Source: Escherichia phage LPEK22. From it: DNA of 64,000 bases. The stretch lies in sequence record OK283619.1; one strand, written 5' to 3'. The translations under genes and the position numbers were made by a program. The notes beneath the pieces were generated by a model, which worked only from the letters and a program-made list of their open reading frames with translations, did not search any database and was not told the origin of the DNA. This document shows, one piece after another, positions 19,369-19,892 of this stretch (position 1 is the stretch's first letter; each line of letters starts with the position of its first letter).

Positions 19369-19403
19369 GGTAATGTCCTCTTGAATAAACCGCTTTGGAC
19401 TAT

Positions 19404-19853
19404 TTAGGCTTCTCTGGTCGCCAACCCTGGCTTAAACACCACCATTTCCTCAACGTTATTGGCACTCATAGAGGCTATAGAATCGAACCCTTTGTTGATA
19501 AGTTCTTTCACATTATCATGTATCTTACCAGGCTTTATCCCCAACTCTCGCATTTTATTTTCCCACACCGAAACATTGTTGGAATCTATTACAAGAGTCT
19601 TCTTGGCCTTGACACGAAATGCCATGACAATAGGTTCACCAGATTGACGATAGCGCACGGCATTTTCTGCGTAGATCTGTGCCTTTTCTGGATCCCCCGT
19701 CAGGTAAAACCCAGCACCCATCGTACCAGAGTCAGTCTGGCCAAATTTTTCAAAATCAAAGATATCGAATTCAACATTAGACCCATGATACAAAACGATA
19801 TTCGTAAAATCAGGTAACGTTGATTCGCGATAAAATTCTAGAAAGGTTTTCAT
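19404..19853 (-). CDS. hypothetical protein with H-G-S motif
   Basis: 149 aa; LYHGSNVEF, GAGFYLTGD and a later EE pair, weakly reminiscent of H-Y-E ADP-ribosyltransferase/Tpt1-like folds. Confidence 0.5.
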   Translation of the reverse strand: MKTFLEFYRESTLPDFTNIVLYHGSNVEFDIFDFEKFGQTDSGTMGAGFYLTGDPEKAQIYAENAVRYRQSGEPIVMAFRVKAKKTLVIDSNNVSVWENKMRELGIKPGKIHDNVKELINKGFDSIASMSANNVEEMVVFKPGLATREA

Positions 19854-19892
19854 AGATACCCCACACTGGTCGTATGGGGTATTTAGGATGGA

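Follow-up and report, generated by a model that had tools for sequence, protein, structure and literature searches.

The Alt protein of phage T4 modifies host RNA polymerase. [quoted passage not shown] AcrIF11 (PDB 6kyf) is an anti-CRISPR ADP-ribosyltransferase (ART) of Pseudomonas phages and mobile elements, and we know of no report that it is packaged in virions. Kutterviruses (ViI, CBA120, SFP10, Det7 and relatives) have been widely isolated and have been proposed for biocontrol or therapy against Salmonella and E. coli O157.

The route taken by Alt is described: it enters the prohead core, its 7-residue N-terminal propeptide is trimmed by gp21 and it is ejected with the DNA (PMC9026906, PMC5512222). 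The T4 capsid-targeting sequence (CTS) reads MKTYQEFIAE, with residues 4 and 7 used for targeting and residues 8 and 10 for processing, and gp21 cuts after L/I-x-E (PMC8442874, PMC9026906). ART-PolyVal is the ART domain of the 'polyvalent proteins' of phages and conjugative elements (Tox-ART-HYD2 group; Iyer et al. 2017, PMC5512222). Its prototype has an Asp at motif III, and for the family as a whole, entry together with the invading DNA and modification of proteins of the host were predicted (PMC5512222).

Here, a 149-aa protein was compared with these systems. It is encoded in a window of 64,000 nucleotides, the whole stretch of Escherichia phage LPEK22 DNA that was analysed (OK283619.1; all coordinates refer to this window). 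On balance, we favour the reading that it is an active H-Y-E ART, carried in the virion and delivered at infection. The ORF, its family and fold, the conserved triad, the promoter/hairpin module and the common tag were computed, and the detection in virions was taken from the literature. The Kuttervirus identity of the phage, the occurrence in virion proteomes, the module common with the tailspike genes and the T4-CTS-like tag are new here. The virion association and the N-terminal tag, both absent from the original prediction, are the more telling features.

A conserved gene of Kutterviruses

One ATG-initiated ORF of 149 aa was found in the ORF listing of the window at 19404-19853 (minus strand), with its stop codon at 19404-19406. 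Its product is the same as CBA120 orf229 (100% identity) and close to Vi01_183 and Sajous1 gp116 (97% identity with each), and the source phage of the window is a Kuttervirus (Ackermannviridae), an identification added by this analysis. Because the product matched PHROG 4700 over its full length (E = 3.5e-95), the gene was present in 229 phage records (tblastn) and it was annotated as a CDS in the public records examined, the ORF is a real and conserved gene. It is near-core in a strictly lytic phage family.

Family and fold

The original prediction had pointed to LYHGSNVEF, GAGFYLTGD and a later glutamate pair as a loose likeness to H-Y-E ARTs or to Tpt1-like RNA 2'-phosphotransferases. These elements were found in the translation at residues 21-29, residues 46-54 and E135-E136, respectively. 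Three such short motifs alone could occur by chance, and the match of the whole protein to the ART-PolyVal profile could not: Pfam PF18760 scored 41.9 bits against a gathering cut-off of 31.2 (E = 2.2e-10), residues 19-142 being aligned with profile positions 7-127 of 140. Precomputed Pfam assignments list PF18760 for all the orthologs. The domain (19428-19799, minus strand) is predicted, from Pfam and from the structure model, to have the split beta-sheet ADP-ribosyltransferase fold.

The structure prediction that had been proposed as a check gave a confident AlphaFold2 model of the 149-aa protein (pLDDT 85.5), with PARP15, diphtheria toxin (DT) and tankyrases among the best solved neighbours. 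In BFVD, the structural neighbours were PolyVal ARTs within giant phage proteins. The above-threshold Pfam match, these neighbours, the conserved residues and a weak DT alignment (see below) together bear out an ART fold of the H-Y-E (diphtheria-toxin/PARP-like) class. The Tpt1-like alternative gained no support, since no PTS_2-RNA profile match was obtained and Tpt1/KptA scored clearly lower than the best fold matches. The fold assignment is not new, because public databases already label the orthologs "ART-PolyVal-like" or "ADP-ribose transferase". A literature search returned no experimental work on this protein or on any ART-PolyVal member.

A search for homologous proteins returned close orthologs only, and the distant family surfaced in an exhaustive profile search. 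This search gave 1978 relatives, many of 1000-7000 aa, and stand-alone (solo) ART-PolyVal versions exist among the relatives. When two distant stand-alone relatives (P0030 and P0112) were used as tblastn queries, no cultured phage closer than the Ackermannviridae was found. PDB sequence searches gave nothing significant, whether the query was the protein itself, the profile of its orthologs (A1) or a broad profile of the family (A2); the matches to DT, exotoxin A (ExoA) and PARPs were sub-threshold (E 0.1-1). The NCBIfam search gave nothing useful. DUF3990 (PF13151), a related family of the same clan, scored 32.1 bits against a cut-off of 32.2, with residues 20-89 aligned to profile positions 2-68 of 152; it fell short of the threshold, covered the N-terminal half only and was not retained as the best assignment. 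PADLOC PDC-M13A also matched the N-terminal half only (residues 20-89, E = 2.9e-9).

Predicted active site

Conservation was assessed in 20 Ackermannviridae orthologs plus one DUF3990 protein, P0021 (set A1). H23, G24, S25, G46, G48, F49, Y50, L51 and T52 were invariant in this set, and E136 and Y61 were nearly so: the only row of A1 without Glu at position 136 was P0021, and all the Ackermannviridae sequences (21/21) have Glu. In 288 distant domains, the His was present in all 288, the Gly in 278, Ser or Thr in 282 and the Tyr in 243. The third triad position was E, D or Q in 47 of the 49 distant domains aligned over their full span (E 35, D 9, Q 3), so Glu, not Asp, is the commonest residue at motif III in the sampled set.

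A weak profile alignment to DT placed H23, Y50 and Y61 on DT H21, Y54 and Y65. From conservation and this alignment, motif I (H23-G24-S25 in strand 1; CAT GGG TCT in the raw sequence, 19779-19787, minus strand) would provide the NAD-binding His, equivalent to DT His21. Motif II would be Tyr50 within G-F-Y-L-T in strand 2 (TAC, 19704-19706, minus strand), equivalent to DT Tyr54, and the near-invariant Tyr61 (19671-19673, minus strand) would be the second nicotinamide-stacking Tyr, equivalent to DT Tyr65. Motif III is Glu136 within V-E-E-M-V-V-F in strand 5 (GAA, 19446-19448, minus strand), the predicted catalytic Glu on the basis of its conservation. An Arg-Ser-Glu active site and the R-S-E toxin-like fold of the T4 Alt/ModA/ModB clade were not found in the protein. 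The protein is probably an active ART, and the substrate that it modifies may as well be a protein as not, the other options being nucleic acid modification and NAD+ hydrolysis.

Late-promoter-like motif and leader hairpin

A late-promoter-like 11-mer, CTAAATACCCC, starts 33 nt upstream of the ATG (19876-19886, minus strand). Four exact copies were found in the window against 0.79 expected, the other three preceding tailspike genes, and the equivalent site of phage LIMEstone1 is annotated as a putative late promoter. A leader hairpin with the arms ATACCCCATAC and GTGTGGGGTAT (-18 kcal/mol) was located at 19856-19882 (minus strand); its stems are kept across phages and its loop varies. The left arm overlaps the 11-mer and the right arm carries the sole Shine-Dalgarno-like G-run, and the ART gene and the tailspike genes have this late-promoter/hairpin/start-codon module in common. 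In Sajous1, the full module stands ahead of five genes, and the products of all five are in the virion proteome.

Virion association

Sajous1 gp116 was detected with 10 spectra in CsCl-purified virions, and gp117 (a PLP enzyme) and gp118 were unreported in the same proteome (PMC10892097 Table 6). The Sajous1 authors state that low spectral counts can be contamination (PMC10892097). On the strength of one peptide, LIMEstone1 ORF173 was listed as a 'confirmed structural protein' (PMC3296691). The label 'phage associated protein' is given to Vi01_183 by annotation only, and its neighbours Vi01_181 and Vi01_182 are labelled 'uncharacterised'. Virion detection of the orthologs comes from the literature and from record annotation, with modest counts and with proteomes that do not resolve head from tail. 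We consider it highly probable that the ART protein is a genuine virion component.

N-terminal tag

Residues 1-10, MKTFLEFYRE (19824-19853, minus strand), resemble the T4 CTS and may form a tag of the same kind, with a predicted prohead-protease cleavage site after Glu10. Six of the ten positions are equal to those of the T4 CTS, F7 and E10 included, with F4 where T4 has Tyr. Residues M1-L5 are at least 90% conserved among the orthologs, pLDDT is about 50 over residues 1-10, and the sequence from Ser11 onward reads STLPDFT[N/D]IVLYHGSNVEFD[I/V]FDFEK. At the predicted processing site E10 is present; at position 8, where the T4 site has Leu/Ile, this protein has Y and its orthologs have Y, F or L. 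In the distant stand-alone relatives the tag ends in a canonical L/I-x-E, and in one ortholog lineage, P0005 (MKTFLEFYYGQK), Glu is missing from positions 10 and 11. For the tagged Sajous1 proteins gp215 and gp216, the stretches that correspond to the one from Ser11 begin QAQQPQTHGG and AKVDHRR.

In the six-frame translation of about 180 kb, the core tag motif occurred four times only, each time directly after an annotated initiator Met; chance estimates for the tag are soft, because the pattern was partly refined after the matches had been seen. The tag heads otherwise unrelated proteins (kage_206, kage_167 and kage_84 of phage kage, which differs in places from the window; gp82, gp215 and gp216 of Sajous1), and no relatedness between the tagged proteins was found past residue 12. 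Three of the four tagged Sajous1 proteins have at least 10 virion spectra, and the fourth, gp82, was undetected in the virion proteome. A gp21-family prohead protease is encoded (kage_24, Peptidase_S77, E = 2.6e-28), with prohead core and scaffold genes annotated alongside.

Residues 2-22 were aligned collinearly by MAFFT with an internal 'F-x-x-W-F-G-D-S-K...YHGT' segment of polyvalent-type ARTs, so the N-terminus could simply belong to the ART domain. The N-terminal stand-alone versions have [FY]7, [LIY]8 and E10, and the internal pre-domain segment of the giant proteins reads W7-F8-G9-D10-S11. The N-terminal tag and the internal segment occur together in P0066, P0112 and the contigs L041-L043, which argues that they are separate elements. 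In uncultivated T4-like contigs from IMG/VR (L021, L041-L043), the ART lies within arrays of small tagged genes; the L021 array is flanked on one side by T4 scaffold, Gp23 (E = 2e-139) and gp19-like genes, and on the other by UvsY/UvsW. By analogy with T4, the tag is likely to target the ART to the head, and cleavage after E10 is about an even call.

Comparison with described systems

The protein shares with ART-PolyVal an above-threshold whole-domain match, the fold, the His in strand 1 and the Tyr in strand 2, and a phage origin. It differs in being a 149-aa single domain, whereas the described domain is one module of proteins of 1000-7000 aa; this context, absent here, is reflected in the family name and is no requirement for the Pfam domain. 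Its predicted third catalytic residue is Glu, in place of the Asp of the prototype, and it has a CTS-like tag where the giant proteins have the internal F-x-x-W-F-G-D-S-K segment. As with Alt, the phage is a myovirus of the T4 superfamily and the protein would be a late-made, virion-carried ART, and Alt serves here as the functional model; Alt, however, belongs to the R-S-E clade and the Kuttervirus protein to the H-Y-E clade.

The T4 internal proteins provide the model for the tag: a ten-residue sequence that begins M-K-T and has Phe7, Glu10 and an aromatic side chain at position 4 heads unrelated small virion proteins, a gp21-family protease is encoded, and T4-like contigs have tagged arrays by their head genes. 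Unlike those proteins, the cargo here would be a predicted enzyme of pI 5.4, and position 8 is Tyr/Phe/Leu instead of the Ile of T4. AcrIF11 has no detectable sequence similarity to the Kuttervirus protein, and nothing ties the latter to CRISPR-Cas. Sequence similarity to diphtheria toxin, exotoxin A and PARPs is below significance (E 0.1-1); the Kuttervirus protein has neither the helical regulatory domain of PARPs nor a receptor or translocation domain, and its residues 90-125, between strands 3 and 5, are specific to the ART-PolyVal family.

Proposed function and alternatives

In the following scheme we infer that the protein is catalytically active, that its tag directs it to the head and is cut off, and that it is ejected and has a host target. 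The protein would be a single-domain, NAD+-dependent ART-PolyVal of the Tox-ART-HYD2 group (H-Y-[EDQ] clade), with an active site formed by H23, Y50/Y61 and E136. It would be transcribed late from the CTAAATACCCC promoter-like motif fused to the leader hairpin, as at the tailspike genes, and would end up in the virion. MKTFLEFYRE would most likely act as a CTS of the T4 internal-protein type, docking the ART to the prohead core, and the gp21-type prohead protease (Peptidase_S77) would clip it off after Glu10. The mature 139-aa enzyme would remain in the head and be ejected into the cell with the DNA, where it would spend the NAD+ of the host on ADP-ribosylating one of its macromolecules at the very start of infection. 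Such a modification could redirect the machinery of the host, the part played by T4 Alt, or knock out a defence, the part played by the small phage ART AcrIF11. Injection with the DNA to modify a host molecule is probable, because the ART is found in the particle and has a T4-like tag, and the suggestion in the original prediction that the protein modifies a host target or counters a defence is plausible.

An active ART need not be injected cargo targeted by a CTS. Its N-terminus could be a helix of the ART-PolyVal domain, and the enzyme could act late in the producing cell or ride the particle in another manner (e.g. in the tail or baseplate). In line with this, MAFFT places KTFLEFYRES...YHGS collinearly on the internal pre-domain segment KTFFEWFKDSKVLDHDGKPLIVYHGT found in P0066 and on comparable stretches in giant proteins, profile positions 2-18 match inside many polyvalent proteins, a tail needle knob gene is close by, the promoter module is common with the tailspike genes and the spectral counts are low. 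However, at least four other proteins, none of them with an ART domain, start with the decapeptide, and virions contain three of the four proteins of Sajous1 that have the tag. The coexistence of the tag and the internal segment in P0066, P0112 and L041-L043, their divergence at positions 10 and 8 (E10 and [LIY]8 in N-terminal versions against D10 and F8 internally) and the position of the tagged arrays next to g22/g23 in T4-like contigs also speak against it, and we regard this explanation as unlikely. The loss of catalysis is more doubtful still. On that reading the protein would be a dead ART-fold pseudoenzyme with a minor part in virion structure or assembly. Known pseudo-ARTs have lost the His or the Glu (PMC7955679), but H23, Y50, Y61 and the glycine-rich NAD-binding motifs are kept in 21/21 Ackermannviridae sequences of 60-97% identity, E136 is Glu in the same 21 and the wider family keeps the same residues. 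This makes a pseudoenzyme very unlikely.

If the enzyme is active, its substrate might not be a protein. NAD+ could be hydrolysed or phosphorolysed (RES/MbcT), DNA or RNA could be ADP-ribosylated (DarT, some PARPs), or an RNA 2'-phosphate could be the target (Tpt1/KptA). The best fold matches, and the only hints at the sequence level, are to the protein-modifying DT, ExoA and PARPs, and Iyer et al. 2017 (PMC5512222) placed ART-PolyVal among ARTs that modify proteins. DarT, like Tpt1/KptA, scored clearly lower, no PTS_2-RNA, RES or DarT profile matched, and NAD+ depletion would be a strange opening move for a lytic phage, which depends on its host remaining active; a non-protein substrate is rather improbable. 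The near-threshold DUF3990 score (32.1 against 32.2 bits) and the PDC-M13A match (E = 2.9e-9) raise the further idea that the phage carries a toxin-antitoxin or defence-candidate module of the DUF3990 type (PADLOC PDC-M13/M10/M42) in which this protein is the toxin; the adjacent, very acidic protein (pI 4.05) could conceivably inhibit it. These matches span residues 20-89 only, whereas ART-PolyVal spans the whole domain. No acidic partner is conserved downstream of the distant stand-alone relatives, and the gene is near-core in a family of strictly lytic phages, is expressed late and has its product in the virion, so that we give this idea hardly any weight.

To return to the preferred reading, an active ART carried in the head, a wider proposal is put forward tentatively and is more doubtful than that reading itself. 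Ackermannviridae and uncultivated T4-like myoviruses might use a conserved T4-style tag to load changeable small head cargo, a recurrent cargo being a minimal H-Y-E ART, 'unbundled' from giant polyvalent proteins, that on injection modifies a target, in host defence or in takeover, different from the one that T4 Alt acts on.

Significance

Genome screens for biocontrol and therapy look for toxin-like genes, and the presence of a near-core gene for a particle-borne enzyme of the diphtheria-toxin/PARP class is therefore worth noting. The protein is a small and experimentally convenient representative of ART-PolyVal, a family common in phages and conjugative elements. If its tag works as in T4, capsid-targeting sequences would be conserved well beyond the T-even phages, and one could recognise unknown virion cargo by its sequence alone and load proteins into the heads of Kutterviruses. 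If the wider proposal above holds, no ART-PolyVal enzyme before this one would have had a delivery route and a host so open to experiment, and the tag would provide phages that already serve in biocontrol with a natural handle for delivering proteins. Whether H-Y-E ARTs have taken over the part that the R-S-E enzyme Alt plays in T4, or instead counter a defence system, would become apparent from the identity of the target.

Neighbouring reading frames

An antisense ORF that overlaps the ART gene (19395-19817, plus strand) matched no phage protein family and is probably spurious. kage_155 ('Tk.4') had no Pfam match, hence a macro-domain partner is unsupported. The gene adjacent to the ART gene encodes a very acidic protein; this downstream gene has no conserved counterpart beside the distant stand-alone ARTs, and for this reason it was dropped as a conserved partner of the ART. 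The ART protein itself has a pI of 5.4, and a tail needle knob gene lies near the ART gene.

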